From IMG/VR virus record IMGVR_UViG_3300045988_184255: DNA of 64,000 bases; one strand, given 5' to 3'. Under the pieces are notes generated by a model. The model saw only the letters and a list, made by a program, of their open reading frames with translations, was not told the DNA's origin and made no database searches. The position numbers and the translations under genes are program-made. Below are positions 3,488 through 29,642 of this stretch, piece after piece. This DNA is from a virus. Position 1 is the stretch's first letter; every line of letters starts with the position of its first letter.

Positions 3488-3517
3488 AAAAGCGCCCCTA
3501 CGGGCGCTTTTCTTTTG
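3488..3517 (+). terminator. Rho-independent terminator closing the paralog A-C operon (aaaagcgcccctacgggcgcttttctttt)
   Basis: GC stem with tacg loop followed by T-run; first element of the repeated cassette. Confidence 0.7.
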
Positions 3518-3527
3518 CCTGAAATCA

Positions 3528-3661
3528 TTGACAAAATATCAAACTGTGGTAGTATAGAATTATAATTACGAAGCTATTTTTATAAAGGAGAGTATCTCCG
3601 TTTCAAGTCACCATACATAAATTCAGACAGTTATCCCAATCTTGGGTGGCTGTCTTTTTTT
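3528..3661 (+). promoter_or_regulatory. Cassette copy 1: promoter TTGACA-N16-TGgTAGTATAGAAT, SD-sequestering hairpin (GGAGA gta TCTCC), and leader hairpin agacagttatcccaa/ttgggtggctgtct plus T7
   Basis: Near-identical sequence occurs six times in the window at operon heads. Confidence 0.75.
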
Positions 3662-3726
3662 ATATATTTTTATACATTTTATATGCCCATAAGTCCTCTT
3701 AATAGGCAGGGAGAAAGGAGAAAAAT

Positions 3727-4758
3727 ATGGATGTGAAATCTCTCAACGGCTCATCCGGAAGATGGAGCGATATTAGTCTGGCCGTACCATTTGATACCGG
3801 CATGGATAGAAAGATTCGTGACAAGCTGATGGATGCCGTGGCGGAAGAACTGAAAGGCAACGCCAACTGCGGCTACGACCCTTTCGGTGCAGAACGCTTC
3901 GGCATCAAGCGCCATAACTGTGGCTACATTCAGAAAAACGGCAGCTACATCGTCGGTATTGGTATCCGCATTGTGATGGATACAAATTACGATTCAGACG
4001 TGTCCCGCGAGCTTATTCGTCAGGATATGCTTCCTGCTGTGCAGCGTGTGGCAGCACAGTTCGGCGTAAGGGCAACCGTTGTGGAACGGAGTTCGCAACT
4101 CTTCGATGCGGAGTTGGAGGACAAAACAATCAGGCGCAATGTTCTCATCAATCTGTTTGAGTGCAGATTTTACCGCACAGTATTCCATGACGAAGCGCAA
4201 GTTCCGACCGAAAAAATCGAGTGGGATGCCTACTGCGCTCACTGTGCGACTTTGCCACGGGACGTTCCGCCAAAACGTTTGCTGAATCCGAACGATTTCG
4301 GCATCACCTTCAAGAAGGGACGATATGAGTACGAACTCGTTGGTGTCTACAAGTACCGTCCGTGGAAGTACGTTGTTGGAAAGCGAATCGGCGAAGTCTC
4401 TACTGGCAAGGAAATCCTCATTCCCCGTGAGGAGATGGAGCAGATTTGCTACGAGCTGCAATGCACAGACAAGGATGCTCTGGCCTTGGAAAATGCCAAG
4501 GACGAAGAAGCCGCATTCTACCGCAACAAAGAGTATATCCGGCATCGACTTGAACGCTTTGGCATCGACATTTCCTACCGTGAGATGTACTCGTATGACG
4601 GACATGACTTTATCATCATCGGCATCCAGCCGAAAGCCCATACCTACCCCTTCGTGGTGCGTTGTGTGGATGAGGACGGTCCGATGTCCGGTAAGGTGAG
4701 CAAGCAGCGGTTATGGAACGTTTTGGACGTGATTGCTGCGGAACGCAGAAAGCAATAG
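3727..4758 (+). CDS. Paralog D of the Cys-x-x-DPFG tandem family (343 aa), first gene after cassette 1
   Basis: RBS gggagaaaggagaaaaat then ATG; NCGYDPFGAERFG, VPTEKIEWDA, ISYREMYS. Confidence 0.7.
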   Translation: MDVKSLNGSSGRWSDISLAVPFDTGMDRKIRDKLMDAVAEELKGNANCGYDPFGAERFGIKRHNCGYIQKNGSYIVGIGIRIVMDTNYDSDVSRELIRQDMLPAVQRVAAQFGVRATVVERSSQLFDAELEDKTIRRNVLINLFECRFYRTVFHDEAQVPTEKIEWDAYCAHCATLPRDVPPKRLLNPNDFGITFKKGRYEYELVGVYKYRPWKYVVGKRIGEVSTGKEILIPREEMEQICYELQCTDKDALALENAKDEEAAFYRNKEYIRHRLERFGIDISYREMYSYDGHDFIIIGIQPKAHTYPFVVRCVDEDGPMSGKVSKQRLWNVLDVIAAERRKQ

Positions 4759-4772
4759 AAAGGAGAATACCC

Positions 4773-5006
4773 ATGCAGACATTCTTAGGCACTGTCAGAG
4801 GTGTTGGTGTGATGCTGTTTGTGGCGTTCCTGCTGGTCGGCTCGTTGTGGCTCGGCCTTCATCACGTCACCTTCATCGGCGAAAAGTTCAAGGGACGTAC
4901 CGGCAGCTTGCTGGCCTACCTTGCACTCATCATCATCTTTGGCGGCGGGCTGGCATTGGCGGTCATTATCTCCATCCAGTGTCCTATCAGCCCGCTTCAT
5001 CAGTAG
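4773..5006 (+). CDS. Small membrane protein (77 aa, two predicted TM helices)
   Basis: RBS agaaaggagaataccc then ATG; hydrophobic stretches VMLFVAFLLVGSLWLGL and LLAYLALIIIFGGGLALAVIISI. Confidence 0.5.
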   Translation: MQTFLGTVRGVGVMLFVAFLLVGSLWLGLHHVTFIGEKFKGRTGSLLAYLALIIIFGGGLALAVIISIQCPISPLHQ

Positions 5007-5059
5007 GAATACATTTTGTTTCCCGTAAGACCTTTAAGGCTGGGAGAAAGGAGAAAATA

Positions 5060-7081: not shown

Positions 7082-7106
7082 TTGTGAAAGGAGAATCATC
7101 TACTGC

Positions 7107-7139
7107 GAAAAGCGTCCCTGACGGGGCGCTTTTCTTTTC
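7107..7139 (+). terminator. Rho-independent terminator (gaaaagcgtccctgacggggcgcttttcttttc)
   Basis: GC hairpin plus T-run immediately 3-prime of the 5060..7081 stop. Confidence 0.7.
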
Positions 7140-7150
7140 GACTAAAACGA

Positions 7151-7286
7151 TTGACAAAATATCAAACTGTGGTAGTATAGAATTATAATTACGAAGCTAT
7201 TTTTATAAAGGAGATTATCTCCATTTTCCAAGTCACCATACGTAAATTCAGACAGTTATCCCAATCTTGGGGTAGCTGTCTTTTTT
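7151..7286 (+). promoter_or_regulatory. Cassette copy 2 (promoter plus leader hairpins)
   Basis: Same TTGACAaaatatcaaactgtggtagtatagaat ... agacagttatcccaatcttggggtagctgtcttttttat as copy 1. Confidence 0.75.
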
Positions 7287-7352
7287 ATATATTTTCATAC
7301 ATTTTGAGTTCCCGTAAGTCCTTATTACAGGCAGGGAGAAAGGAGAAAAACA

Positions 7353-7937
7353 ATGAGTGTCATCAACACCCGACTCGCCTATCTCTATCGTGATGCGGAC
7401 AACTACAAAGTTCGTCACGAGGTCGTTTTCGCCGGCCAGATGTCGGAGGAGGAAAAGATGCGTATTATCGCCAGTCTCGATGACGGCGAATACTTCATCC
7501 CCGGCCCTCTCGGTCTGAACGACGAGCGTTTCGGCAGTGAGACGGAGGCCGACCATCCCTTCTTTGAGTTCTGCTACTTCGAGGAAACCACGGATAAGCC
7601 GACGACCGATATCTCCATCGCCGAAATCGTCAAACGGTTCGAGGACAATGCCCATCTCTGGAAGGATTACGAGACTTCCTTGGAAGACGTTGAACTCAAC
7701 GAGGTAAACGACATCAAGATGCCCGCACCTGACACTGAGGAAGACCTCTCCCCCCGTGCCAAGGCTCTCCTGTTTGAGACGCTGGAGCTGTTCCGGAAGG
7801 AAATCAGCCCCAAGTTCTCCGACTGGAAGGATGCCGACGATTGGCTGTTCAGCAGCCTGAGTATCACCAAGGACGAGCTGCAGGATATCTACGCCGACCA
7901 TGACGTGATGGTCTATGGCGAGTCTGCGGCGGACTGA
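7353..7937 (+). CDS. Strongly acidic protein (194 aa, D/E-rich); speculative DNA-mimic or anti-restriction-like candidate
   Basis: RBS gggagaaaggagaaaaaca then ATG; high Asp/Glu content; first gene after the cassette. Confidence 0.6.
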   Translation: MSVINTRLAYLYRDADNYKVRHEVVFAGQMSEEEKMRIIASLDDGEYFIPGPLGLNDERFGSETEADHPFFEFCYFEETTDKPTTDISIAEIVKRFEDNAHLWKDYETSLEDVELNEVNDIKMPAPDTEEDLSPRAKALLFETLELFRKEISPKFSDWKDADDWLFSSLSITKDELQDIYADHDVMVYGESAAD

Positions 7938-7946
7938 GAGGCTGCT

Positions 7947-10572: not shown

Positions 10573-11811
10573 ATGAACAAGAACGACAAGGGCTATGTTA
10601 TCTGCGTCACACCTACCGGCAGCGACCTGCCATTTGTGCCCAACGTGGAGCACATTCGGAGAAGTGATTCGAGTGACCTCCCAAACCGTGCGGCGGCGCG
10701 TAAGGCAGAAAAGGATGGTATCAAAATCATCCATGATATGCCCAACGTACCGGACTGGACGTACATTGACACGCCGCAGAACCGTGAGAAAATCACCGCG
10801 TGGCTGAAGGAGCATCCTGAGATGTGCTTCAAGAAGAATGAGCCTGCCGTGTCTACGCGGTATAAGGCTACCCTTCTTGTCCCTTCCAAGGATGCCGAAA
10901 TGTGTCAGGAACTGCTGGATATGCCTTGTGGCGAGGAGCATATTCCCGCTGTGGAGTCCGGTATTGGCAAGTATGCCGGTGTTCGTTGCTTCGGCCTGAC
11001 GTTCCCTGATGGCTATACCGCAACCGTCACTGTTTGCTCTGATGACAAGGGATTCTATGTCAATCCCGTCCTCTGGAATGAGGAAATGTCTGATGTCATG
11101 TGTCTGGCTTCTGAAAGCGAGCTGGAGGGCATCTACACCTTTGATTACTGCGACAATGTGTATGTCATGGAAGTCGTCAAAGATACGTCCACACCGGCGC
11201 TCCACGCAACTACTATCAGAATTCCTGCTGTGGTCGCAACGAAGTATATCAGCTATATGCAGGGCGAGAATGTTCCCAACAATATCATCTATGCAACAAA
11301 TGTCGTTATCGCTGAATATACCAACAAGTTTGACAACGGCTTCACCGCCGTCCTTCAGATTATCCGAAGGGAAGCTAAAGTTGTTGCGAATCTCGCACTG
11401 TATGATGCGAACGGCATCAACGTCTGGAACATGGATGATGACCGTTTGTTGCTGTGTACCAGCAGGTTCAACTACGGCAACGGCACCTACGAGGTCACAA
11501 TCACAGACGAGCCGGCACCCAGCGACGAGAAGCAGGGATACTGGACGGAAATCCGTCACGATTTTCACGAGGAGTCTCCCATCGGCTACGGCGATGTTAT
11601 TACCGCTGTTTCCATTGATGGCTGGCGTACTCCCGACGATGACGCTGAAGGCGAGGTCATTGCCCGTGTTTTCCTGACCAAGAAAGGTGATATGGTTATT
11701 GATTATATCAATGCCATTGCCCGTATTGATGTGCTGGCACAGGAGGCTATCGACGAAACCGTGAAGGAACTGCGCGAGCAGTTCGTCAGCGAGGAAGGCT
11801 CAGATGAGTAG
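10573..11811 (+). CDS. Protein of unknown function (412 aa)
   Basis: RBS agtgaaaggagtatatcttt then ATG. Confidence 0.6.
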   Translation: MNKNDKGYVICVTPTGSDLPFVPNVEHIRRSDSSDLPNRAAARKAEKDGIKIIHDMPNVPDWTYIDTPQNREKITAWLKEHPEMCFKKNEPAVSTRYKATLLVPSKDAEMCQELLDMPCGEEHIPAVESGIGKYAGVRCFGLTFPDGYTATVTVCSDDKGFYVNPVLWNEEMSDVMCLASESELEGIYTFDYCDNVYVMEVVKDTSTPALHATTIRIPAVVATKYISYMQGENVPNNIIYATNVVIAEYTNKFDNGFTAVLQIIRREAKVVANLALYDANGINVWNMDDDRLLLCTSRFNYGNGTYEVTITDEPAPSDEKQGYWTEIRHDFHEESPIGYGDVITAVSIDGWRTPDDDAEGEVIARVFLTKKGDMVIDYINAIARIDVLAQEAIDETVKELREQFVSEEGSDE

Positions 11812-12148
11812 ACCGAAAAGAGGCGATATCATTATCGCCAAATTCGACCCCACTGATGGGGCGATGAAGTTTGGTGTTACAAGCACCCTTCTCGTCGTAA
11901 GCAACGATACGCTGCACGGAGTAACAGATTTCGTCTGGGTGTGTCCGTTGTCCTACGAAACTGAGTACGGCCCATACCATGTTATACTCGATGAGAAGAC
12001 GTGTCCTCCTCGTAGCGGAACCGTCCTGTGTGAGTATGTAAGCTATTTCAACATCATGGCGAACAAGTACGATGTTGTAGGTCATCTGCCCGATGAGGTT
12101 CTCACTGAGGTACGGTCTGTCCTCTGTAACATTTTTTCTTGTTCTTAA
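11804..12148 (+). CDS. MazF/PemK-like protein (114 aa); putative orphan toxin-fold protein
   Basis: N-terminal RGDIIIAKFDPTDG...TLLVVSND resembles the PemK/MazF signature RGDI..vdfdP..G.E..k.RPalVvSnd; overlaps the upstream gene by 8 nt. Confidence 0.45.
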   Translation: MSRPKRGDIIIAKFDPTDGAMKFGVTSTLLVVSNDTLHGVTDFVWVCPLSYETEYGPYHVILDEKTCPPRSGTVLCEYVSYFNIMANKYDVVGHLPDEVLTEVRSVLCNIFSCS

Positions 12149-12154
12149 CCCGCG

Positions 12155-12186
12155 AAAAAGCTCCCTTCGGGGAGCTTTTTCTTTTG
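12155..12186 (+). terminator. Rho-independent terminator (gaaaaagctcccttcggggagctttttcttttg)
   Basis: ttcg-loop hairpin plus T-run. Confidence 0.7.
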
Positions 12187-12196
12187 CCTGAAATCA

Positions 12197-12332
12197 TTGA
12201 CAAAATATCAAACTGTGGTAGTATAGAATTATAATTACGAAGCTATTTTTATAAAGGAGATTATCTCCGTTTTCCAAGTCACCTTAAAGAATCAAGACAG
12301 TTATCCCAATCTTGGGATGGCTGTCTTTTTTT
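12197..12332 (+). promoter_or_regulatory. Cassette copy 3 (promoter plus leader hairpins; leader variant accttaaagaatcaagacag)
   Basis: Repeat of the cassette; hairpin agacagttatcccaatcttgggatggctgtct plus T7. Confidence 0.75.
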
Positions 12333-12395
12333 ATATATCTACATACATTTTTGTGTTCCCGTAAGTCCTTCAAGGCTGGGAGAAAGGAGAAACAA

Positions 12396-13559
12396 GTGAA
12401 AACCAAAGTTATCTTCGAGCGCACTGGCAAAAACATGGAGGCTATCCGTGAGGAAGTCATCGTCAACGGCGAAATCACTAAGGATGGTTTTGCTGTAATG
12501 ATGGCAGCTACCAACGGCGATGGCACATTCGTACCGGCTGTTGTCGGTCTCCATGAGGTGAACGCCGCTGATGAGGCTGTGTATGCGAAGCTGGTCGGCA
12601 TCGAATTCTGCGAAGCTAATCTCATCGCAACGTGCAGCGCGGACGTCCTCGTGGGGCGTTTCGTGAACGCGAACGGTGCGTGGGACGAGCTGCCCGTCAA
12701 GGGTCAGGCGCAGAGTGGTACTGCCCGTGTCGGCATTCCCTTTGTCTACGGACTTTACAACTTCACGCCGGTGCGTAACGGGGTGAACAAGAAGATTTCG
12801 TGGTGGATTTCCCGTCAGGGTATCGGCCACGCACTCTACTGCTTCACCTCCAACTACACCGCCGAAATCGGCTATCAGTTCCAGCACATCAGCAGCTATA
12901 TCTCTATGTTCGAGGCACAGTTCGGCACCATCGACGGTAAGCCGGCGCCCGTACAGACACCTGCTGGTGGACGAAATGCGGATGATACCCGCTTCAAGGT
13001 CTACCCCAATGTAGGCCCTGCCTACATCGTCGAGGTTCCCTCTGCCGAGGTCGATAACATCGACGATTGGCTGAGTGAGCATATGGAGAGTGATGCCACC
13101 TTTGTGGAGCTGAAAAGCACCGATTCCACCTCCAAAAACACGTCCTCTGACGACAATGCCGACATCCGCGTGCGGGACATCTGCGGCGATAAGTGCCAGT
13201 GCCATGTCTACTACGACAAGGCTTCCGGCCAGAACAAGATGCGTTTTTGGCTGAGAGCTGCTTTCCCCCGTCCCGCCGATATGATTGAGGTACGCACGGC
13301 GCTGAAAGCGAACTTCGGCAGCGGCGCCGGCACTCACACCTATGATGATGGCTCCTTCGACGTCATCATTCAGAGGTTGGTGCCGTTCGCTTTCTCCAAT
13401 GCGGATTTTGAGAGCTTCGCAGACAATGCGGTTACACTCATTGAGAATGTTCTGCACGCCAAGGCAACCAGTGTGAGCTGGAACGCCGGCCATTGTGAGA
13501 GCGATGATGATGTACTTCTCACTGCGGAAGAGCAGAGCATCGTAAGCCGGCAAGCGTAA
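12396..13559 (+). CDS. Protein of unknown function (388 aa), GTG start
   Basis: GTG 12396 is 7 nt after agaaaggagaaacaa; the ORF-track upstream extension overlaps the leader terminator and has no RBS. Confidence 0.55.
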   Translation: MKTKVIFERTGKNMEAIREEVIVNGEITKDGFAVMMAATNGDGTFVPAVVGLHEVNAADEAVYAKLVGIEFCEANLIATCSADVLVGRFVNANGAWDELPVKGQAQSGTARVGIPFVYGLYNFTPVRNGVNKKISWWISRQGIGHALYCFTSNYTAEIGYQFQHISSYISMFEAQFGTIDGKPAPVQTPAGGRNADDTRFKVYPNVGPAYIVEVPSAEVDNIDDWLSEHMESDATFVELKSTDSTSKNTSSDDNADIRVRDICGDKCQCHVYYDKASGQNKMRFWLRAAFPRPADMIEVRTALKANFGSGAGTHTYDDGSFDVIIQRLVPFAFSNADFESFADNAVTLIENVLHAKATSVSWNAGHCESDDDVLLTAEEQSIVSRQA

Positions 13560-14052: not shown

Positions 14053-14898
14053 ATGGATTCCAAGAAAAAGACAAACAAGACTCGTTGTAGGGCTTGCCCC
14101 GCATCCGGTTTTTGCTCCGATGTCTGCTACAATAGGGATGTTCCTGATGCCACCTGTGCTCATGCCGTGAAGTACGATAAGCTGAATAAGCGTGTCGCTT
14201 CGCTGGAGGGACAGGTTGAGACGGTGAAGTTCATGCCGCTGAAGCAGCGAGACGCCGAGCTGGAAAAACTGTGGGATGAGTTCACGGATGTCCCGATGAA
14301 TCCGGACACCGAGAAGATGGAGGATGCGTTCCTCCACTTCCCCGCCGGCACTCCTCGTGAAGACATCTGGCACTGGTTCGACGAACGCTATTCCAAGGGC
14401 ATCGCTGCGCTGCTTTACGGTCGTGGCGAGGACAACACAGCTACCATCGCTACTCTGACTTATCGGAACGAGCTGTGCTGCGAGTGCGACTCTGAGTTGT
14501 GCGCCTTTGCGGATGCTTCCGGTATTTGCCGTGCTCCGTTCATTACCGGCGCCGCGCCGCGTATCCACGAGGATGGCTGCGACGATTTCTGCAGTAAGTG
14601 CGATGCGGGCTGCACGGCCAGCGTCGCAGACAAGACTTCTGAGGCTGGACGGTATATGGTCTTCACGGACAGTCCCTACGTCAGAGACGCTCAGATTTAC
14701 TGCGGCACCATCGACGAAGATATCTATTCCGAGGAAAACGAGGATAACTGGTACGATACCAGCGGTCCTGTTCTGCTCGTTGACAGAGATTTCAAGACCC
14801 TCGATGAGCTGCGGAAAACGGTGATGAACTTCTATCCCGACATGGACCTTTGTACCCTGCGTGCCATTCGGGTCTCAGCGGAAACTGTCTGCCTGTAA
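14053..14898 (+). CDS. Cys-rich protein (281 aa), unknown
   Basis: RBS aaagaaaggagaaaataatc then ATG; many CxxC-type pairs. Confidence 0.6.
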   Translation: MDSKKKTNKTRCRACPASGFCSDVCYNRDVPDATCAHAVKYDKLNKRVASLEGQVETVKFMPLKQRDAELEKLWDEFTDVPMNPDTEKMEDAFLHFPAGTPREDIWHWFDERYSKGIAALLYGRGEDNTATIATLTYRNELCCECDSELCAFADASGICRAPFITGAAPRIHEDGCDDFCSKCDAGCTASVADKTSEAGRYMVFTDSPYVRDAQIYCGTIDEDIYSEENEDNWYDTSGPVLLVDRDFKTLDELRKTVMNFYPDMDLCTLRAIRVSAETVCL

Positions 14899-14912
14899 GG
14901 GAGGTGCCCACA

Positions 14913-15365
14913 ATGGATGCCTTTTTGGAAAAGCTCAAAAAGTCTTTTGTCGAACGTTTTACGTCTTTGATGGAAGACAACGGCGACTCCGTGACGGAAG
15001 CTGCGAGGATTATCGGTGTTGCTCCGGAAGCTGTCTCAACGTGGCTGCGTGGGCGTATCGTGCCGAGCATTGATTACTTCGCTAAAATTGCGGATGTTTA
15101 CAATGTCTCTGTTGATTATCTGCTGGGTCAATCTGAGACCCAGCAGATAAAAGACATCCCCGATGAGGCGGCATATCCGGCTGTTCCCGCACGAGCCTTC
15201 TACAACTCGGCACTACAGCTTATGGCAAAACAGAATTCTCTCATTTCCCAACAGAATGCGTTGTTGCAGCAACAGAACGCTATTCTGAAGGCAATGCAGC
15301 AGAAGGCCACTGTTGAGAACACATCTCTGCCTTCGACAGATGTGCCTCTTGGTTTGCCATTTTGA
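14913..15365 (+). CDS. XRE-family (Cro/cI-type) helix-turn-helix regulator (150 aa)
   Basis: TEAARIIGVAPEAVSTWLRGRIVPSIDYFAKIADVYNVSVDYLLG is a classic HTH_3 pattern; RBS gggaggtgcccaca. Confidence 0.7.
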   Translation: MDAFLEKLKKSFVERFTSLMEDNGDSVTEAARIIGVAPEAVSTWLRGRIVPSIDYFAKIADVYNVSVDYLLGQSETQQIKDIPDEAAYPAVPARAFYNSALQLMAKQNSLISQQNALLQQQNAILKAMQQKATVENTSLPSTDVPLGLPF

Positions 15366-15440
15366 GCAGAAAGGAGATTTTATAACCTTGGAGGGGGCTG
15401 TTGTTTGCAGCAGTCCTCTCTTTCTATACATAGTCTGTTT

Positions 15441-15470
15441 GACAGAGAGCGTACAAATGGGCTATAATAG
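15441..15470 (+). promoter_or_regulatory. Internal sigma-A-type promoter TTGACA-N18-TATAAT upstream of the small-gene/kinase pair
   Basis: Consensus -35 and -10 hexamers seen in the sequence; the flanking ctctct...gagag inverted repeat overlaps the -35. Confidence 0.55.
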
Positions 15471-15498: not shown

Positions 15499-15714
15499 AT
15501 GGAAGAATTCGTAAAGGGCGTATCCAAAACTTGCCTATATGAAGACCCTCACTGTGACGAAGAGGATGCGGAAATGGACCGTCGGATTTCGTCGGTAGCC
15601 TTTGAAGCCTATCAACGGGCAAAAATGAAAGGTATTCCTGTTGCTCGCTATGATGCAGAGAAAAAGTGTGCCTATTTACTGTATCCGGATGGGAGAATCG
15701 AGTATGTCAAATGA
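15499..15714 (+). CDS. Small protein (71 aa); epsilon-antitoxin-like partner candidate
   Basis: RBS ttgaaaggaggatacaact then ATG; overlaps the start of the downstream P-loop kinase by 11 nt. Confidence 0.45.
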   Translation: MEEFVKGVSKTCLYEDPHCDEEDAEMDRRISSVAFEAYQRAKMKGIPVARYDAEKKCAYLLYPDGRIEYVK

Positions 15715-16384
15715 GAAACAGCGGAAACCTTGCATTATCGTTTTCGCTGGGCCTAACGGGTCAGGTAAAAGCTCACTTACAAGTAGAGTAGATATACTAC
15801 CCCCGTATATCAACGCAGACGACATCAAAAAAGAAACTGGATGCAGCGATTTGGAAGCGGCACAGAAGGCTGATGCAATGCGCTTACAGTGTGTAGAATG
15901 GGGCGAAGATTTTACCTTCGAGACAGTTTTGTCCACGAATAAAAAACTGGAATTTCTAAAATATGCAAAAGAGCATGGGTATTTCATAAAAGGCTTTTTC
16001 GTTCTTACGAAAGACGCATCCGTAAACGTACTTCGTGTATGGGAACGTGTTCAATCTGGAGGCCACGACGTACCTGAAGAAAAGATTCGGTCTCGGTACG
16101 AAAAGTCTTTGGCAAGGGTTCAGGCCTTTGTTGACCTATGCGACATCTGCCATATTTATGACAACTCCGGCTCTTCAACGGATAGAATATTCAAGAAGGC
16201 ACATGGCGACACCTATAAATGCAGGGAAAATGCTTTCTGGAGCAAACAGGAAATCTGTGACCTCGTAGGCATCAAAAGCAATAATGTTGGAGAACTTCTG
16301 CTTTCCGACTATGAGAAGAAGCTCTGTAATTCACTTAATAGTGCTACTGAGACTGAGGAGGACGTAGATAGAAATGACAAGTAG
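15704..16384 (+). CDS. P-loop kinase resembling zeta-toxin family (226 aa)
   Basis: Walker A VFAGPNGSGKSS near the N-terminus; size and the overlapping small upstream gene fit an epsilon/zeta-like module. Confidence 0.5.
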   Translation: MSNEKQRKPCIIVFAGPNGSGKSSLTSRVDILPPYINADDIKKETGCSDLEAAQKADAMRLQCVEWGEDFTFETVLSTNKKLEFLKYAKEHGYFIKGFFVLTKDASVNVLRVWERVQSGGHDVPEEKIRSRYEKSLARVQAFVDLCDICHIYDNSGSSTDRIFKKAHGDTYKCRENAFWSKQEICDLVGIKSNNVGELLLSDYEKKLCNSLNSATETEEDVDRNDK

Positions 16385-17310: not shown

Positions 17311-17340
17311 AAAGAGGCCCGAAAGGGCTTCTTTTTTTTT
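17311..17340 (+). terminator. Rho-independent terminator (aaagaggcccgaaagggcttcttttttttt)
   Basis: GNRA-type loop hairpin plus T9. Confidence 0.7.
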
Positions 17341-17353
17341 GGCTCTGTAATGA

Positions 17354-17489
17354 TTGACAAAATATCAAACTGTGGTAGTATAGAATTATAATTACGAAGC
17401 TATTTTTATAAAGGAGATTATCTCCGTTTTCCAAGTCACCATACGTAAATTCAGACAGTTATCCCGTTTCGGGGATAGCTGTCTTTTTT
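17354..17489 (+). promoter_or_regulatory. Cassette copy 4 (promoter plus leader hairpins; hairpin variant agacagttatcccg tttc ggggatagctgtct with compensatory changes)
   Basis: Repeat of the cassette; the stem changes preserve pairing. Confidence 0.75.
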
Positions 17490-17553
17490 ATATATTTTCA
17501 TACATTTGTGTTCCCATAAGTCCTTATCATAGGCAGGGAGAAAGGAGAAATTC

Positions 17554-18117
17554 ATGACTGACTATCCTAATGAAATTGCCCGTTTAGACGCACAGCGTCG
17601 AAAGAATCACGATGCCACCGCCTATGAGGAGCTTGACAAGGCCTATACCGAATCCGGTCATACCGTGTTCATTATGGCACTCAACGCCCTCATTTCGCTG
17701 GGACGTGATACCGTCGCGGCCATGGCGCATCCTGCGGCTATCGCTGCGACTATCCAAGGGAACATCTTTTCCGAGGATTTCAAGCTGGAGGTCGGACGTA
17801 TCGCACTGATGATGGCAAACGCCGACATCGACGTTCTGTTGGCCGTTATTCAGCGCATAGTCGTCCCCTTCACTGACCCTCAGGGCAAGCGCATCCCGTT
17901 CCTGCACCCCAACGGCGACGAGGAGGACGTCTGCCCCGTGTGTGGCGCCGAGGTCGAATATCAGGGCGACCGTGAAATCGACTACAACGATGGTACGGAG
18001 GTGAGCTGGGAATGCCCCGTCTGCAAGGCGTTTGGCAAGGCACTGTACCACGACACCTTCCTCCAGCACGATTCTGTGATTGATGGGAATGGTGATTGCG
18101 TACACGACCGTGTCTGA
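17554..18117 (+). CDS. Protein of unknown function (187 aa) with C-terminal CxxC...CxxC
   Basis: RBS gggagaaaggagaaattc then ATG. Confidence 0.6.
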   Translation: MTDYPNEIARLDAQRRKNHDATAYEELDKAYTESGHTVFIMALNALISLGRDTVAAMAHPAAIAATIQGNIFSEDFKLEVGRIALMMANADIDVLLAVIQRIVVPFTDPQGKRIPFLHPNGDEEDVCPVCGAEVEYQGDREIDYNDGTEVSWECPVCKAFGKALYHDTFLQHDSVIDGNGDCVHDRV

Positions 18118-18159: not shown

Positions 18160-18783
18160 ATGACCAAGAACTTCAAGACGGTCGTTGAAGCACTGAACGA
18201 GACCGGCTTCTATCTGGCCTTCTGCAATCTTGTCGTAAACAAGATTGTAAGAATCCCCATCAAGAAAATTATCTCCGCTGCGGAGGGAAACATTGATGGC
18301 ATTTCCAACTGGCTGGAACACGCTGTGAAAGACGCCTGCTCCGCTTTTAATCAGGACGTTACCATCGACGACCGGATTATGAAGATGGAGGGCGAGATTC
18401 TGCGTGTCACCCATTTCTGCTTTGACCCCCGCATCCGCGAGGCTTTCAAAGAAATGGGCTATGAGCGCATCTCAGAGGTGTACGAGTCCCGTGGCATCAA
18501 CATCGAGGACACCGGTATGTTGGAGAAGGTCAAAAGCGTGTTCTGTACCTACGTCTTTCTGCTGAACCAGCAGGATAAGACGCTTGGTATCGACCTCTCC
18601 GTTGTCCCTTCTGTGGGTTCCTACAGCATTCGTTTCAACGAGTGCATTCAGGACTCCATCGTATTCAAGGACGAGGCGGCAGCGAAAGCATTTGCCAAGG
18701 CAAACGGATTGGAGAAGCCGTTCATTTCCTTCTACAAGATGACTGCTTATTGGCAGCCCCTTGAGGAAGGAGATGCGGTGTGA
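18160..18783 (+). CDS. Protein of unknown function (207 aa)
   Basis: RBS gaagaaaggagaaagcacc then ATG. Confidence 0.6.
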   Translation: MTKNFKTVVEALNETGFYLAFCNLVVNKIVRIPIKKIISAAEGNIDGISNWLEHAVKDACSAFNQDVTIDDRIMKMEGEILRVTHFCFDPRIREAFKEMGYERISEVYESRGINIEDTGMLEKVKSVFCTYVFLLNQQDKTLGIDLSVVPSVGSYSIRFNECIQDSIVFKDEAAAKAFAKANGLEKPFISFYKMTAYWQPLEEGDAV

Positions 18784-19223
18784 GCACTTCTCAAACCACT
18801 TCCCTGCCGCTTGCTGCTGTCCGCATTAAAAATGCACGGCTGTCTCTGGAACTATCTCAGAGTCAGCTTGCAGAAAGGTGTGAGGTGACTCCACAGACCA
18901 TCTACAAGTATGAGTCTGGGCGAGTGGAGAATATCCCCCTGAAGACTTTGGAACGCTTCGCCGAGGTACTGGGCGTCTCCCCTGCTTATCTGGCGGGCTG
19001 GACGAACTCACCTGCCGGCACCAGCGTTCTGGATATTCAGGTACGAGGAGCCACTCTGCTCTGTGCCACCTGCCCCATCTGCGGAAGCCTGAAGTTCGGC
19101 CCGAAGCACGGAAGTGCCTATGGACCCGAAGCCCGTTGCTCCGACTGCGGTACAACATTCCGTCTCGATGCCGACCAGTTTCCTCTGAAGACTGTTCGGC
19201 TTGGTATGTCACTGCTGGCCTGA
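18780..19223 (+). CDS. XRE-family HTH regulator with C-terminal zinc ribbon (147 aa)
   Basis: LSQSQLAERCEVTPQTIYKYESGRVENIPLKTLERFAEVLGVSPAYL is an HTH_3 pattern; C-terminal CPICG...CSDCG. Confidence 0.7.
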   Translation: MSTSQTTSLPLAAVRIKNARLSLELSQSQLAERCEVTPQTIYKYESGRVENIPLKTLERFAEVLGVSPAYLAGWTNSPAGTSVLDIQVRGATLLCATCPICGSLKFGPKHGSAYGPEARCSDCGTTFRLDADQFPLKTVRLGMSLLA

Positions 19224-23113: not shown

Positions 23114-23148
23114 AAACTTTTCACAGCAAAGCACTGATTTTTCCACTA

Positions 23149-23180
23149 AGAAAAGCTCCTTCGGGGGCTTTTCTTTTTTT
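23149..23180 (+). terminator. Rho-independent terminator (gaaaagctccttcgggggcttttctttttttctc)
   Basis: ttcg-loop hairpin plus T-run. Confidence 0.7.
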
Positions 23181-23267
23181 CTCAATTTTTGCTGAATTTG
23201 AAAGAAAGAAAACGCTCGAAAATGGCTTGGTTATGCGGTTTTCATGGACTATGTTTGTTCCTGTTCT

Positions 23268-23379
23268 CCCGACTAAAATCTCAAATTTTTATTCGGTTTT
23301 TCCCGACTAAAGTTTAGTTCTTATAACTCTGATTTCCCGACTAAAATTGCAATTTGAAAATTCGGAAATCCCGACTAAA
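23268..23379 (+). repeat. Four direct iterons CCCGACTAAA (starts 23268, 23302, 23336, 23370) at exact 34 bp periodicity; ttcgg motif upstream of copies 2 and 4 (tattcgg / aattcgg)
   Basis: Found by direct counting in the noncoding gap between the terminator and cassette 5. Confidence 0.7.
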
Positions 23380-23427
23380 ATCAAAAAACAGTGCAAATGT
23401 AATAAACGCAATTTGGTGCCTAAAATG

Positions 23428-23563
23428 ATTGACAAAATATCAAACTGTGGTAGTATAGAATTATAATTACGAAGCTATTTTTATAAAGGAGATTATCTCC
23501 GTTTTCCAAGTCACCACATAAATTCAGACAGTTATCCCAATCTTGGGGTAGCTGTCTTTTTTT
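23428..23563 (+). promoter_or_regulatory. Cassette copy 5 (promoter plus leader hairpins; lacks the ttcccgtaagtcct pre-RBS motif)
   Basis: Repeat of the cassette. Confidence 0.75.
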
Positions 23564-23607
23564 ATATATTTATTGCATTTTTCGACAACAAAGAAAGGAG
23601 AAACACC

Positions 23608-23790
23608 ATGAAGTACAAGAAGCTCACCAAACATGAGCGAGACACGCACCCGTCCATTCACTGTACGGGCAGCGTGCGCGGCATGAAGGAACGTGGGTTG
23701 TGGGACAAGGATGCCGAGTGTGTTCGCTGCGGCAACCACATCTACAACCTGTCCGTTACCATCCCGCCCTACCCTGCTGATGGCTGCTGA
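23608..23790 (+). CDS. Small Cys-containing protein (60 aa)
   Basis: RBS aaagaaaggagaaacacc then ATG. Confidence 0.45.
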   Translation: MKYKKLTKHERDTHPSIHCTGSVRGMKERGLWDKDAECVRCGNHIYNLSVTIPPYPADGC

Positions 23791-24335: not shown

Positions 24336-24777
24336 AATGAGACTTTACCGCGTAACGGTTATCGGCAGCAATGCCGAAAGGAAGCGCGGAAAAGTGGTGG
24401 AAGAGGTCACAGTCAAGGTCGGAACCAAGTGGCTGACGGACGATAACGGTCGGCGTTACTACAAGGTGCCGCTTGAGGACGCAAACCGAAACCTCTACTT
24501 CCAGCTCAACACCATGTACTGCATGGACTACCGGCTGTATCAGACAGAGCAGGCCGCCAAGGATTACCTTCGGCAAGCGGAACTGCGTGTGGCGCTTTGC
24601 AAGGCGGTGAGCAATTTCGGCTTCAACGCTCCCCTGCCTGTGCTGGAGAAGGTCATGGATACGCTGAAATACACCCCGTTCGCACAGCGTCTCACCAGCG
24701 TCTTCAATACGCTGACGGACATGGCTGTGGATGGCGGGTTGACGGACGAAGAAAGGAGCAAGAACAATGGCTGTTGA
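24325..24777 (+). CDS. Protein (150 aa), first copy of a tandem duplicate pair
   Basis: ATG embedded in the upstream gene tail (aacaATGgccgctgaaatgag); N-terminal MAAEMRLYRVTVIGSNAERKRGKVVEEVTVKVGTKWLTD. Confidence 0.55.
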   Translation: MAAEMRLYRVTVIGSNAERKRGKVVEEVTVKVGTKWLTDDNGRRYYKVPLEDANRNLYFQLNTMYCMDYRLYQTEQAAKDYLRQAELRVALCKAVSNFGFNAPLPVLEKVMDTLKYTPFAQRLTSVFNTLTDMAVDGGLTDEERSKNNGC

Positions 24778-25135
24778 GATGAGACTCTACCGCGTGCCTA
24801 TTATCGGTAGTAATGCCGAACGGCGGCACGGAAAGGTGGTGGATGAGGTCACGGTCAAGGTTGGAACCAAGTGGCTGACAGACAATAGAGACTGTCGATA
24901 CTACAAGGCTCCTTCCGAAGATGCGAACAGAAATCCCTATTTCCAGCAGAACTCCATGTACTGGAGTACAGATTACCGGCTGTATCAGACGGAACAGGCT
25001 GCCAAGGACTATCACCATCAGGCGGAATTGCTCATAGCTCTTCGCAGAGCCGTTGGCGACTTCGGCTTCAACGCCCCGTTGACCGTGCTGGAGAAGGTCA
25101 TGGACACTCTCAAGGAAGGCGGATGCTTGAAATGA
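24767..25135 (+). CDS. Protein (122 aa), second copy of the tandem duplicate (MAVEMRLYRVPIIGSNAERRHGKVVDEVTVKVGTKWLTD)
   Basis: Same junction sequence as the upstream copy; about 70 percent identical. Confidence 0.55.
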   Translation: MAVEMRLYRVPIIGSNAERRHGKVVDEVTVKVGTKWLTDNRDCRYYKAPSEDANRNPYFQQNSMYWSTDYRLYQTEQAAKDYHHQAELLIALRRAVGDFGFNAPLTVLEKVMDTLKEGGCLK

Positions 25136-26577: not shown

Positions 26578-26582
26578 CTCTA

Positions 26583-26744: not shown

Positions 26745-26767
26745 CGGAGGTGAAGGACGTGTTCAAA

Positions 26768-26935: not shown

Positions 26936-27003
26936 ATTAAAGCCAGCGGGAGGGGCGCTCTGCCTCTCCCCTGCTTAAAAAAGAAAAGGAAGGAGATATT
27001 CGA

Positions 27004-27222: not shown

Positions 27223-27254
27223 GCTGTTTTTTTCAAAAAGAAAGGAGAAAAATT

Positions 27255-28295
27255 ATGGGTAATACATCTATCGGAGCCGCTGCATCTTTCTGCAACGAGA
27301 ACACGCTGGTCAAGGTCTACCGCTATAATCCTAAGTACGACAGGTTCGAGACGACCTTCGTTCCTTTCAAGGACATCCGCAAGAGCGATTCTGTGAGCGT
27401 CTTTGCCAGTGATGGGCACGAGATGCACTTTTCCGTTCTCACAAATGCTTCTTTTAAGAAGGACGAGCGATACGGGAACGAGTGCGGTTGGTCTGTGAAA
27501 GTCACTGAGGACGGCGGCAAGACGGAGATGGTTCTTCGTCCCACCGATTTCGCGCCCTACATCATCAGCCTTTCCGTTACCGACGAAGGAGAGTGGCGCG
27601 GCTGCCGGCTGCTTTTCGAAAGCGTCCTCAACGACACCGAAGCTATCGTCAACAATATGCGGGCGCGATTCGAGCCGCGTGTTGCGCCGGAAAACACCTG
27701 CGGGCGGCATTCCGACACAGTTGCGGCCATGGCGAAGAGAGACCTTACTCGTGAGTGGACGGAGCAGTTCGGCTTCCGGCTCATTTCGGACAGCGTAAAC
27801 TTCGCCCAGTGCAGTGTGAAGGACATTCTCTCTGATAAGTTCTTCAATCCCCCTGCCATGGAGTTGACGTTCTTCGCCTATTCCGACGGCGAGTATTCAG
27901 CGTCCCCCCTGTTCTTTGCCAAACTGCCCGATTTGGGCGAACGGTACAACAAGCCTGAGGGACGTGCTGCAATCGCAGAACTGCTGCAGAAGCTGGATGA
28001 GATGTACGGCGACCTGCCTGAAGACACAACAAAATGGGCTCTGGAGTATCAGCTTTGGGCTCGTATGCTGCTGGCAGAAGGTGCGGTCATGCTGAATCCG
28101 AAGCACCTCGACCTCCCCGACTGCGCCTACGAATTCAAAACGCTGGCTTTCGGTAATAAAATGCTGAAAGACAGCGGTGACGGTATTGCGTGGGCAAAGG
28201 CTGTCAAAACACCTATCAGCGTAATCGCCGAGGCGTGGGAGAATGACATGAGCGAGTCCGGCGATGAGGCTTTTACCTGCATCGTGACGGGCTGA
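27255..28295 (+). CDS. Protein of unknown function (346 aa), first of a tandem paralog pair
   Basis: RBS aaagaaaggagaaaaatt then ATG; shares LTFFAYSDGEYS..PLFFAKLP...YQLWARMLL.EGAVMLNPK with the next gene. Confidence 0.6.
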   Translation: MGNTSIGAAASFCNENTLVKVYRYNPKYDRFETTFVPFKDIRKSDSVSVFASDGHEMHFSVLTNASFKKDERYGNECGWSVKVTEDGGKTEMVLRPTDFAPYIISLSVTDEGEWRGCRLLFESVLNDTEAIVNNMRARFEPRVAPENTCGRHSDTVAAMAKRDLTREWTEQFGFRLISDSVNFAQCSVKDILSDKFFNPPAMELTFFAYSDGEYSASPLFFAKLPDLGERYNKPEGRAAIAELLQKLDEMYGDLPEDTTKWALEYQLWARMLLAEGAVMLNPKHLDLPDCAYEFKTLAFGNKMLKDSGDGIAWAKAVKTPISVIAEAWENDMSESGDEAFTCIVTG

Positions 28296-28309
28296 AAGGA
28301 GAAAAACAT

Positions 28310-29362
28310 ATGGATATGCCGATTTCGAACAAGCGAAAGCTGCACTGCGACGAGAACGTACTGGTCCACATTGTGCGCTACTGCCATGATACGGATGACG
28401 CAGATGGCGACGGCGTCAGAGAGGTGGAAATGTACGTCCCCTTCAAGCACATTTGCAAGGGCGATGCCATTGATATTCCTGATAAGGACACCGACGATGC
28501 CTTCAGAACAACCGCCTATGCTGCGGAAGACGCTTCGTACAACGAGGCTAAGGCGGGTGGTTGGTTTGTGCCGGTCGCCTGCACTGGGCAGAAAGATTAC
28601 ATTCTGAAGCCCGACGATTTCGCACCTTGGCTCGTGACACTGAGCGTTGTGTTCACGAACGGGTCGTCCTGCAAGCTCTTTTTCGAGTGCGTGGAACGAA
28701 GCGAAGAGAAGCTGCGGGCAAACATCCGCAGAATCTTTGACGATGTGCCGACGCTGCGGCATGAGATGGGCTTCGTTGCCCTCGTCCGCCATATGGCATG
28801 GAAGTACCTCACACCGGAAAGAACGGAGCCTCTCGGCTTCAGATTCCTTTCGGATGATGTCGTCTGGAGCAACTGCAAAGTGAAGGACATCCTTCCTGAC
28901 CGGTTCTTCGCGGCGGCTGACATGAAGCTGACGTTTTACGCCTATGCGGAAGATGAGTATTCTGGGAATCCTCTGTTCTTTGCAAAGCTGCCGTATCTCG
29001 GTACGCATCACGGACATCCTGAAGGTTGTGTGATTTGCGCTTCCATCCTGCGGAAACTGGATGAGCTGTATGGCGACCTGCCGACGGAAACGTCCCGTTG
29101 GTCGCTGGAATACCAGCTCTGGGCGCGTATGCTGCTCTCTGAGGGAGCAGTTATGCTCAATCCGAAGTACATTGACTTGCGCCAAGACGGTGCGCTTGAT
29201 GCGCTTCTGGAGGACATTCCGATGATTGATGGTTTCGCCGATGACGTCGCTTGGCGTCGTGTGGCAGGTGTACCCATCGACGAAATCCATGAAGTGTGGG
29301 ATGCGAGTTCGGATGATGGTGTCGCTCCGTTCACCTATACCGTCCGAGCAAAAATCCTTTGA
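28310..29362 (+). CDS. Protein of unknown function (350 aa), second paralog
   Basis: RBS ctgaaaggagaaaaacat then ATG; about 45 percent identical to the upstream neighbour over the C-terminal 200 aa. Confidence 0.6.
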   Translation: MDMPISNKRKLHCDENVLVHIVRYCHDTDDADGDGVREVEMYVPFKHICKGDAIDIPDKDTDDAFRTTAYAAEDASYNEAKAGGWFVPVACTGQKDYILKPDDFAPWLVTLSVVFTNGSSCKLFFECVERSEEKLRANIRRIFDDVPTLRHEMGFVALVRHMAWKYLTPERTEPLGFRFLSDDVVWSNCKVKDILPDRFFAAADMKLTFYAYAEDEYSGNPLFFAKLPYLGTHHGHPEGCVICASILRKLDELYGDLPTETSRWSLEYQLWARMLLSEGAVMLNPKYIDLRQDGALDALLEDIPMIDGFADDVAWRRVAGVPIDEIHEVWDASSDDGVAPFTYTVRAKIL

Positions 29363-29395
29363 TTCTTTCGCTTCAAGACAAACCACATTTTTTCA

Positions 29396-29426
29396 AAAGA
29401 AGCTCCTTCGGGAGCTTCTTTTTTTG
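29396..29426 (+). terminator. Rho-independent terminator (aaaagaagctccttcgggagcttctttttttg)
   Basis: ttcg-loop hairpin plus T-run. Confidence 0.7.
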
Positions 29427-29437
29427 CGCCAAAAGGA

Positions 29438-29575
29438 ATTGACAAAATATCAAACTGTGGTAGTATAGAATTATAATTACGAAGCTATTTTTATAAAGGA
29501 GATTATCTCCGTTTTCAAGTCACCACAAAGAATCAAGACAGTTACTTCCCTTTTCTGGGAAGTGACTGTCTTTTT
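29438..29575 (+). promoter_or_regulatory. Cassette copy 6 (promoter plus leader hairpins; hairpin variant agacagttacttccc ttttct gggaagtgactgtct)
   Basis: Repeat of the cassette with covarying stem bases. Confidence 0.75.
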
Positions 29576-29642
29576 CTATATATAACATTTTTTGGATTCC
29601 CGTAAGTCCTTATTACAGGCTGGGAGAAAGGAGAAAAAGACC

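Follow-up and report, generated by a model that had tools for sequence, protein, structure and literature searches.

We examined a 64,000-nucleotide stretch of DNA from the IMG/VR virus record IMGVR_UViG_3300045988_184255 (the whole stretch is called the window below), in which one noncoding cassette recurs six times at the heads of co-oriented operons. The window has a GC content of about 51% and Firmicutes-type expression signals. It is laid out as a 37-kb plus-strand gene array, in which most genes have no Pfam match, followed by a tRNA-Ser gene and then by an opposite-strand block that encodes a flotillin, a non-specific endonuclease, topoisomerase III and a 1,897-amino-acid (aa) thioester/TQ adhesin. 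The recognisable array genes encode a DUF4942 methyltransferase, MazF, a zeta toxin, two XRE-type helix-turn-helix (HTH) proteins, an AAA/VWA pair (MoxR-VWA), and Fic, HD and DpnD/PcfM proteins. The comparisons reported here show that each cassette serves one operon as its expression module, within a large co-regulated set of early/establishment, replication, recombination and candidate anti-defence genes, and show this gene set to belong to an uncultured mobile element of about 190 kb from the human gut whose expression signals are likewise of Firmicutes type. The module consists of a near-consensus extended -10 promoter, a leader start of about 45 nt, a terminator that ends about 100 nt into the transcript, and an exchangeable 5' untranslated region (5'UTR) with the ribosome-binding site (RBS) GAAAGGAGA.

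An earlier note, made from the letters of the window alone, had described six such cassettes with a shared layout. Alignment of the six intervals bore this out, placing all six copies on the plus strand (Table 1), and so did an exact 33-mer spanning the promoter, TTGACAAAATATCAAACTGTGGTAGTATAGAAT, which occurs six times, always on the plus strand (3528, 7151, 12197, 17354, 23429 and 29439), with an expectation of 0 (none in 100 shuffles). The extents given for the cassettes needed trimming, although the coordinates themselves were right: the repeat proper is a near-identical block that begins about 10 nt upstream of the -35 hexamer and finishes at the start codon of the next gene, and the span of copy 5 (459 bp) is longer because it includes an unrelated insert of about 250 bp between the upstream terminator and the promoter. 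Likewise, the terminator of the preceding operon, which had been counted as the first part of the cassette, is present upstream of every copy as a GC-rich hairpin with a T-run, but these operon-end terminators are mutually non-homologous and lie outside the repeat. The insert in copy 5 carries, at window positions 23268-23381 on the plus strand, four CCCGACTAAAAT repeats with an exact 34-bp period (unit (T)CCCGACTAAA[A/G]T), an iteron-like array to which a replication, partition or regulatory protein could bind.

Table 1. Coordinates of the cassette parts and of associated features in the window; prefixed coordinates refer to related contigs.
Feature	Position	Strand	Details
Copy 1, upstream operon-end terminator	3487..3518	+	hairpin GAAAAGCGCCCC/GGGCGCTTTTC and T-run; sequence private to copy 1
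Copy 1, promoter	3528..3566	+	-35 3528-3533; TG plus -10 TAGTAT 3550-3555; -10-like TATAAT 3561-3566
Copy 1, leader	3567..3661	+	5' motif TTACGAAG; hairpin 1 3587-3599; leader terminator 3625-3661
Copy 1, post-terminator 5'UTR, class A pre-RBS motif	3662..3729	+	RBS 3713-3721; ATG 3727
Copy 2, upstream operon-end terminator	7107..7140	+	inverted repeat 7107-7118 / 7123-7134, then T-run
Copy 2, promoter	7151..7189	+	-35 7151-7156; -10 7173-7178; TATAAT 7184-7189
Copy 2, leader	7190..7286	+	hairpin 1 7210-7222; leader terminator 7250-7286
Copy 2, post-terminator 5'UTR, class A motif	7287..7355	+	RBS 7338-7346; ATG 7353
Copy 3, upstream operon-end terminator	12154..12187	+	
Copy 3, promoter	12197..12235	+	-35 12197-12202; -10 12219-12224; TATAAT 12230-12235
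Copy 3, leader	12236..12332	+	hairpin 1 12256-12268; leader terminator 12294-12332
Copy 3, post-terminator 5'UTR, class A motif, short variant	12333..12398	+	RBS 12382-12390; GTG 12396
Copy 4, upstream operon-end terminator	17311..17343	+	
Copy 4, promoter	17354..17392	+	-35 17354-17359; -10 17376-17381; TATAAT 17387-17392
Copy 4, leader	17393..17489	+	hairpin 1 17413-17425; leader terminator 17453-17489
Copy 4, post-terminator 5'UTR, class A motif	17490..17556	+	RBS 17540-17548; ATG 17554
Copy 5, upstream operon-end terminator	23148..23182	+	
Copy 5, promoter	23429..23467	+	-35 23429-23434; -10 23451-23456; TATAAT 23462-23467
Copy 5, leader	23468..23563	+	hairpin 1 23488-23500; leader terminator 23526-23563
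Copy 5, post-terminator 5'UTR, class D, short, unstructured, without pre-RBS motif	23564..23610	+	RBS 23593-23601; ATG 23608
Copy 6, upstream operon-end terminator	29395..29425	+	AAAAGAAGCTCC/GGGAGCTTCTTTT and T-run
Copy 6, promoter	29439..29477	+	-35 29439-29444; -10 29461-29466; TATAAT 29472-29477
Copy 6, leader	29478..29575	+	hairpin 1 29498-29510; leader terminator 29535-29575; upper stem rebuilt via compensatory changes
Copy 6, post-terminator 5'UTR, class A motif	29576..29645	+	RBS 29626-29634; ATG 29643
Seventh promoter of the same class, TTGACA-N13-TGTGGTAATATAGAAT	43789..43821	+	unrelated leader without hairpin or terminator
Minus-strand promoter-like sites	3586-3559, 7209-7182, 12255-12228, 17412-17385, 23487-23460, 29497-29470	-	
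UAUAAAGGAGA/UCUUUUUUAUA pairing	7204-7214 with 7279-7289; 17407-17417 with 17482-17492		
Toxin-antitoxin-type genes	window 11804-12148, 15641-16384, 34571-35686; L044:16322-16856; L045:14284-14523		

Across related gut-metagenome and IMG/VR contigs we found 183 instances of the cassette (115 of them distinct), which allowed constrained and drifting positions to be told apart. In the window the promoter reads TTGACA-N16-TAGTAT, as had been noted, and is preceded by TG, giving 10 of 12 consensus matches. Over about 60 promoter variants both TTGACA and TGGTAGTAT (TGGTA[G/A]TAT) are invariant while the 13-nt spacer and the upstream flank vary freely, and fixed hexamers with a drifting spacer are characteristic of an extended -10 promoter read by a housekeeping sigma factor. 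The transcription start would be expected some 7 nt beyond the -10. The -10 is followed by five variable nucleotides, and the sequence beyond them, TATAATTACGAAG[C/A]TATTT[T/C]TATAA(A)GGAG, is almost invariant among the 115 distinct copies; in transcript terms this is a near-invariant start of about 45 nt (AUAAUUACGAAG...), leading into a 5-bp hairpin whose 5' arm copies the RBS of the array. The -10-like TATAAT lies 5 nt after the -10 in all copies of the window type and of the type found on contig L044, and is degenerate in two of the five copies of a second, distant lineage on contig L050 that is taken up below. The seventh promoter of this class (Table 1) heads a plus-strand operon (about 43.9-47.3 kb), one of whose products is a SAF-domain protein (44630-46123); as it occurs there without the leader, promoter and leader are separable modules. 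No credible hexamer pair for a second promoter was found by direct reading downstream of the leader terminator.

Each cassette also has a promoter-like TTTATA-16-TATAAT on the minus strand, derived from an A/T palindrome, AATTATAATT, at the transcription start. A transcript from this site would head away from the leader and reach the 3' end of the preceding operon in antisense orientation. We considered antisense control of the leader by such a transcript and rejected it: the transcript would begin upstream of the plus-strand start and diverge from it, hence could not pair with the leader, and the site is not conserved in L050.

The leader hairpin with its T-run is the most informative part of the cassette. 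The 14-15 bp hairpin proposed in the earlier note is confirmed in the window as a stem of 13-16 bp followed by T5-T7, and T5-T8 stands directly 3' of the stem in every copy when the related loci are included. All 115 distinct copies have it, with the hairpin starting 62-64 nt and the T-run ending 99-106 nt past the TATAAT. The base of the stem, AGACAG/CUGUCU (AAGACAGUU), is invariant and the upper stem has been rebuilt by compensatory changes: 97.4% of stem cells are paired as against 38-61% when the partners are slid, 8 of 13 pairs show compensatory two-sided changes as against 0-3 when slid, and the covariation score was matched in 0 of 500 shuffles. Folds of the whole leader (-26 to -33 kcal/mol) are dominated by this element, with z-scores of -5 to -5.7 relative to shuffles. 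Many of the pairs are G-U, and on the opposite strand these would become A-C mismatches; selection has therefore acted on the plus-strand RNA and not on a protein-binding palindrome. The covariation thus supports reading the hairpin and T-run as a selected plus-strand RNA structure, not as a chance palindrome, and its GC-containing stem, 3' U-tract and covariation are those of an intrinsic terminator, at which termination is predicted to occur.

The leader itself offers little by which this predicted terminator could be switched. We found no competing antiterminator helix: folds of the leader up to the terminator loop reach only -6 to -10 kcal/mol, their structures differ from copy to copy, and the 5' arm of the terminator is essentially unpaired in these truncated folds. 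Any regulated read-through must therefore use a factor from outside the leader. By direct reading there is no leader peptide, with no AUG, GUG or UUG within 5-12 nt of the leader Shine-Dalgarno (SD) sequence. A scan of the whole window against Rfam at the gathering threshold returned the tRNA-Ser only, and an E-value scan of one cassette gave nothing below E = 1, with all matches far under threshold. Riboswitches, T-boxes, RAT/LicT and PyrR sites and leader-peptide attenuators were accordingly set aside, as the cassette has no mutually exclusive helix, no Rfam family and no leader peptide.

The short hairpin in the 5' leader (hairpin 1) has the form GGAGA-tta-TCTCC in the window and, just as had been described, holds an SD sequence without AUG, GUG or UUG at translating distance. 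Across the family the GGAG/CUCC stem is kept and the loop varies, which amounts to sequence conservation without covariation. Its SD-like 5' arm, AAAGGAGA, lies at about +22..+29 and is identical to the RBS of the array, while its 3' arm with the following Us, UCUCCGUUUU, is an anti-RBS that resembles the 3' end of 16S rRNA. The RBS 9-mer GAAAGGAGA itself occurs at 33 plus-strand sites within 1-36 kb (262-35714; for example at 1299, 2359, 4758, 8207, 18144 and 28294) and at 2 in the other 28 kb, with 0.6 expected; as almost every array gene uses it, the array genes form a distinct translation class. Copies of this 9-mer at 3466-3474 and 7086-7094 (plus strand) are orphans: each directly follows the stop codon with which an operon's last gene ends, has no open reading frame (ORF) behind it, and is succeeded by the operon-end terminator. 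They could be 3' stabilising elements or what is left of lost genes.

Downstream of the leader terminator, an RBS and a start codon follow within 30-100 nt in 115/115 distinct copies, so no stand-alone copy was found within these lineages. The stretch between terminator and RBS falls into at least four interchangeable classes across the family. The commonest (about 60%) has the form TTCCC[G/A]TAAGTCC...AGGCNGGGAG; two others have their own hairpins just before the RBS, one of them with a compensatory change (CCC...GGG versus CCU...AGG); and one is short and unstructured. The conserved pre-RBS motif that had been assigned to the cassette is therefore present in five of the six window copies but missing in copy 5, and family-wide it is one of at least four alternative modules.

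Several pairings link distant parts of the leader. A 5' leader segment, UAUAAAGGAGA, is complementary to UCUUUUUUAUA, which covers the end of the terminator stem, the U-tract and a conserved UAUA (11 bp including two G-U pairs; Table 1). In a diverged lineage, a 5' leader segment with one A less is accompanied by a shorter T-run; the lengths of the A-run before GGAGA and of the U-tract likewise go together, two As with T5 and three As with T6-7, which is essentially one lineage split and is to be read as a lead only. In L050, a 5' purine-rich segment pairs with a U-rich stretch after the terminator, forming an analogous long-range helix. The minimum-free-energy fold of one full leader pairs UCUCCAUUUUCC with the true RBS. 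No complementary site outside the cassettes was found that could be a trans target of the single-stranded CCAAGUCACC. Stabilising the RNA, or tuning how the first gene is translated, is the probable role of the RBS-like hairpin and of the complementarity between the 5' purines and the U-tract. We treat hairpin 1 and the long-range pairings as leads, which by analogy with STAB-SD may equally serve mRNA stability.

The layout recurs in L050, which was reached via a homologue (48% identity) of the gene that opens operon 2 and carries ThyX and NrdD. Its five cassettes cannot be aligned to those of the window outside the promoter and the 5' motif. They have the parts in the order TTGACA-17-TATAAT, N5, TAtATTAAAGAAG (TA[T/C]ATTAAAGAAG), a hairpin of 8-9 bp, about 25 nt, a terminator, a pre-RBS hairpin and the RBS. 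Here too the terminator is a covarying hairpin with a U-run, and its sequence is different in nearly every copy. The first hairpin is not SD-like, and one of the five cassettes precedes a minus-strand ORF, with the next plus-strand gene about 570 nt away. From this comparison, the general features are the promoter, the 5' motif UAUAWUUAMRGAAG, the first hairpin and the terminator, and the SD-like sequence is lineage-specific. Further members of the L050 type were sought in IMG/VR: a specific pattern gave 0 matches, and a relaxed pattern gave 13 single matches on unrelated contigs, which we took as chance.

The same layout in an unalignable lineage rules out recent neutral duplication. A selfish repeat (a remnant of a miniature inverted-repeat transposable element (MITE) or insertion sequence (IS)) or a neutral duplication without regulatory function is thus scarcely credible, even though the copies are highly identical and show signs of recombination or gene conversion. 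As the earlier note had set out, terminal inverted repeats and target-site duplications would mark such an element; there are none, nor is there mixed orientation, and the inverted repeats present are limited to the two hairpins, the upstream terminator and the A/T palindrome. All copies point the same way and run up to a start codon, and the invariant hexamers, variable spacer and compensatory stem changes indicate selection. One sign of recombination is that the same downstream gene (GTG AAA ACC AAA...) stands behind the copy-3 leader variant in the window and behind the copy-2 variant in L014:11747-12021 (minus strand; compared with window 7151-7355 and 12197-12398). Such leader/gene chimeras imply that cassettes recombine or undergo gene conversion, and the cassettes may act as joints for shuffling operon modules.

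The reach of the cassette is greater than the window suggests. It had been proposed to control most of the 37-kb array, which underestimates its extent: a 190,756-bp contig carries at least 12 cassettes, all on one strand, from 127 kb across the contig end to 22 kb, an arc of about 86 kb on the circular map. Cassette-bearing IMG/VR contigs range from 36 to 190 kb, and proteins of the element have matches in hundreds of human-gut metagenome contigs, many of them 190-195 kb, with protein clusters of hundreds of members. In contrast to this abundance in metagenomes, scans of 185,579 species-representative genomes with the exact 33-mer and a relaxed leader pattern gave 0 matches; neither megablast with 25 kb of the array nor sensitive blastn with the cassette matched anything in collections of cultured phages and plasmids; tblastn of the topoisomerase III and a YqaJ-like protein against cultured phages and plasmids gave remote matches only (at most about 40% identity); and a literature search for the cassette sequences returned nothing relevant.

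Elsewhere in the family, cassette-headed operons encode a RecD2-like helicase, an SSB-like protein, a YqaJ-type exonuclease, a RecG-like helicase and HNH endonucleases, and the genes of relatives include Tmk, ThyX, NrdD, YopX and a faint AcrVA2-like match. Genes of toxin-antitoxin type (MazF/PemK, zeta toxin, Fic, RelB-YafQ, MazE) are dispersed among the cassette-driven operons, and the set varies by lineage (Table 1). Upstream of the zeta-toxin-like gene, inside operon 3, lies a perfect consensus promoter, TTGACA-18-TATAAT (15439-15468, plus strand), that is unrelated to the cassette. Two weak, sub-threshold Pfam matches on the plus strand are to a phage ProQ C-terminal-like domain (24767-25135, E = 0.0015) and a Lar-type restriction-alleviation zinc ribbon (34310-34564, E = 0.0028); ProQ/FinO proteins bind the terminator hairpins of small RNAs.

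The cassette-free half of full-length relatives holds two giant adhesins and topoisomerase III. One of the adhesins is the surface protein at 55961-61654 (minus strand) of the window, whose 1,897 aa comprise thioester, SpaA-like and five T-Q ester-bond domains; in full-length relatives (L138:1-8200) a second adhesin of about 3,800 aa adjoins it. Giant thioester/TQ adhesins are typical of Gram-positive conjugative elements and unusual for phage, and together with the topoisomerase III their sequences suggest an element of that kind. The scans revealed no relaxase, type IV secretion system gene or oriT, apart from a weak TraI_2 match (E = 1e-4); the contigs of the element are listed in IMG/VR, and phage-like genes are present. 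The host element may be a conjugative megaplasmid, a phage-plasmid or a large phage. Two further features of the window concern its boundaries. The tRNA-Ser (anticodon TGA; 41314-41401, minus strand) lies within the mobile element, where the plus-strand array meets the opposite-strand block. A 276-aa protein at 63137-63967 is found elsewhere only in contigs of at most 50 kb (L123, L124), beside Rep_trans, RelB-like and HTH genes, and not in the 190-kb contigs, so the right end of the window (about 62000-64000) may be a separate small inserted element; for a 411-aa ORF no record was found.

We tentatively favour a reading in which the cassettes define a coordinately controlled early/establishment regulon whose read-through of the leader terminator needs a factor acting in trans, a step that we infer. 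By default, most polymerases would halt at the leader terminator and release an RNA of about 100 nt, and an operon would be on only while some factor from outside the leader allows polymerase to pass. Such a factor could be a protein or RNA of the element or of the host that recognises the 5' leader or the stem base AAGACAGUU, and it could act by making polymerase termination-resistant, as with lambda N/Q, or by blocking hairpin formation. The cargo is consistent with early/establishment roles (DUF4942 methyltransferase, MazF, zeta, Fic, RecD2-like, SSB, Tmk, ThyX, NrdD), and control by a terminator and an antiterminator is documented in Gram-positive conjugative elements (PMC8191782, PMC11658703).

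We hold this reading at less than even confidence, because no factor was found, XRE-type repressors lie within the regulon and the promoter spacer is the least conserved part of the cassette. The earlier note had suggested looking for a NusG/LoaP-like or Q-like antiterminator, and that search came up empty: when about 70 window ORFs and 89 small-protein families were scanned with Pfam and PHROG, none matched NusG/KOW, Q, ANTAR, CAT_RBD or RinA/ArpU, the PHROG result covering the best 25 of 39 families, with proteins from part of the element of about 190 kb and most without annotation. The Pfam and PHROG scans showed no sigma region 2 family, and no DxDGD polymerase motif was found in ORFs of at least 250 aa from the loci examined. 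Other considerations also weigh against control by read-through. The efficiency of leader termination and the read-through are predictions; the XRE-type repressor genes in cassette operons fit promoter repression at least equally well; processive antitermination would make the terminators and promoters between operons largely redundant; the drifting spacer corresponds to the place where Q binds in lambda; and the invariance of the 5' leader within one lineage could come partly from gene conversion between copies.

These points lead to the main alternative, namely that the genes form a burst regulon under a repressor encoded by the element, with DNA-level control at the promoter or +1..+45, genes firing briefly when a new cell is entered and then being silenced, and the leader terminator acting as a constant, leaky dampener and noise filter. 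HTH_3 proteins are encoded inside cassette operons (14850-15365 and 18780-19223), a placement kept in a diverged lineage; the PHROG scan matched 'transcriptional repressor' families among the cassette-linked small proteins; the DNA from -35 to +45 is invariant; and there are precedents in Reg576 on p576 and in ArdK acting on CUP sites (PMC6294495, PMC8708921, PMC6289460). We nevertheless regard it as somewhat unlikely. No repeated operator motif was seen around the promoter, whose spacer and upstream flank are the most variable parts, and a mere dampener leaves unexplained why a covarying terminator of 13-16 bp is selected at a fixed position in two lineages whose terminator sequences cannot be aligned, when a weaker promoter would suffice. 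A Reg576-type operator was tried and rejected: the dual TTATCCC is absent, a single TTATCCC occurs only in the terminator stem of some copies and is not conserved (copy 6 has TTACTTCCC), and that stem covaries as RNA. A different possibility is that the terminated leader of about 100 nt is itself the product, a multi-copy small RNA that binds 30S subunits or the array RBS and sets translation globally, with operon read-through secondary. A strong promoter and a strong terminator do define a short transcript at no fewer than 12 loci, AAAGGAGA copies the RBS and UCUCCGUUUU its complement in a window where GAAAGGAGA is so unevenly distributed (33 versus 2 sites), UCUCCAUUUUCC pairs with the true RBS in the full-leader fold, and the 5' purine-rich segment and 3' U-tail would close the released RNA into a panhandle. 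It is nonetheless improbable, given that all 115 distinct copies abut an RBS and gene (outside this set, one L050 cassette stands before a minus-strand ORF), that the first hairpin of L050 is not RBS-like, which makes the RBS mimicry lineage-specific, that mimic and anti-mimic are both locked within hairpin 1, and that complementary targets are limited to RBS-type sequences.

A cis-acting RNA antiterminator in the 5' leader, comparable to put, EAR or canT, would modify its own polymerase and leave the terminator as a checkpoint or insulator against unmodified ones; we judge this reading very improbable. Whereas put and EAR are larger multi-stem RNAs, the roughly 60 nt upstream of the terminator hold a single hairpin of 4-5 bp, with no Rfam match to EAR or any other family. 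A conserved RNA segment does lie immediately upstream of the terminator, and Gram-positive mobile elements provide examples of such logic in canT and conAn (PMC11658703, PMC8191782). The element would, however, be transcribed by polymerases coming from upstream as well and so could not tell them apart, and if the terminator were always bypassed, its conservation would be hard to explain. Returning to factor-controlled read-through, a bolder form of it would be a regulon-wide attenuation switch of an undescribed kind, in which one factor opens at least 12 leader terminators via the 5' leader while the released RNAs, with their RBS copy and mimic of the 16S end, feed back on the 30 or more GAAAGGAGA genes, the cassette also tagging hundreds of unannotated genes, early or anti-defence, of uncultured elements; we consider this form unlikely.

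Repeated regulatory cassettes before establishment operons are known from CUP (pKM101) and EGeRS1/2 (pLS20/p576) (PMC6294495, PMC8708921), and the claim that the architecture is undescribed was too strong in view of these and of lambda N/Q. EGeRS2/Reg576 on p576 and EGeRS1 on pLS20 likewise stand before co-oriented, variable operons of mostly unknown function, each under one conserved regulatory sequence (PMC6294495, PMC8708921). EGeRS2 contains a strong sigma-A promoter and EGeRS1 blocks read-through in an orientation-specific way, and the regulatory sequence is a tag of the regulon, as here. There is no sequence similarity to our cassette, and the designs differ: EGeRS2 has dual TTATCCC operators, a ribbon-helix-helix repressor and no leader terminator, and EGeRS1 is a GC-rich, highly structured element of 420-750 bp without a constitutive promoter, whereas the cassette is about 200 bp with a promoter and an intrinsic terminator (as predicted), in at least 12 copies over about 86 kb. 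CUP resembles it in having about seven anti-restriction/establishment units, each behind a long conserved repeat with a promoter and regulatory sites, but belongs to a Gram-negative plasmid, has repeats of more than 400 bp and DNA-binding repressors, and has no leader terminator described.

In the pR'-qut-tR' (Q) and pL/pR-nut-terminator (N) arrangements of lambda, a strong promoter is followed by a recognition element and a terminator, the default product is a short RNA, and a modified polymerase is needed to go further. The -10-like TATAAT of the cassette, at about -1..+5, lies where lambda has its sigma-dependent pause element, and the conserved single-stranded motif with a short hairpin of 4-5 bp resembles the boxA-boxB layout of the N system, although the sequences are unlike boxA/boxB and the hairpin does not covary. 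A lambda genome contains one or two such sites, as against at least 12 in the cassette element; its Q-binding element in the spacer has no counterpart in our variable spacer, the hairpin sequence of the cassette differs between lineages, and no Q or N homologue turned up in the Pfam and PHROG scans, though no search was aimed at arginine-rich peptides such as N. The host-takeover module of Bacillus phage SPO1 has dense short early operons with strong sigma-A promoters, terminators and strong, uniform RBSs, and is not known to have a conserved leader terminator after its promoters. The STAB-SD of cry3A has the sequence GAAAGGAGG. Similarly, the non-initiating, SD-like AAAGGAGA in the 5'UTR of the cassette could bind 30S and block 5'-to-3' decay (PMC4113751), but folding predicts it to be base-paired within hairpin 1, it precedes a terminator, and the second lineage lacks it. 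Finally, conAn (pLS20) and canT/T1 (Tn916) are alike in guarding mobile-element operons with intrinsic terminators, which can be passed only by specially equipped polymerases, and insulating them from outside transcription (PMC8191782, PMC11658703). Each of these is a single antiterminator heading one long conjugation operon, whereas the cassette places a terminator after its own promoter at the head of every operon, and neither a conAn1-like protein nor a structured canT-like RNA was identified in the cassette element. Since four of the defining features that we tested (Reg576 operator, Q-binding element, alternative helix, multi-stem cis RNA) were not found, we did not file the cassette in any of these families. 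What is new is the joining of the repeated-tag and promoter-terminator ideas in one module of about 200 bp, in at least 12 copies governing about 86 kb, with an exchangeable 5'UTR, in a gut element that is widespread though uncultured.

The cassette is an easily searched tag that marks early/establishment operons and delimits a regulon in uncultured relatives, as EGeRS does for plasmids of the pLS20 family, and it yields a short list of candidate host-takeover and anti-defence genes. As a compact promoter-terminator module of about 200 bp, it can be put straight into reporter assays. If read-through is indeed controlled by a factor, antitermination would serve in this element as a genome-wide master switch, compared with one or two sites in known systems; and if the regulon-wide attenuation switch is real, almost half of a 190-kb gut element would be turned on at once.

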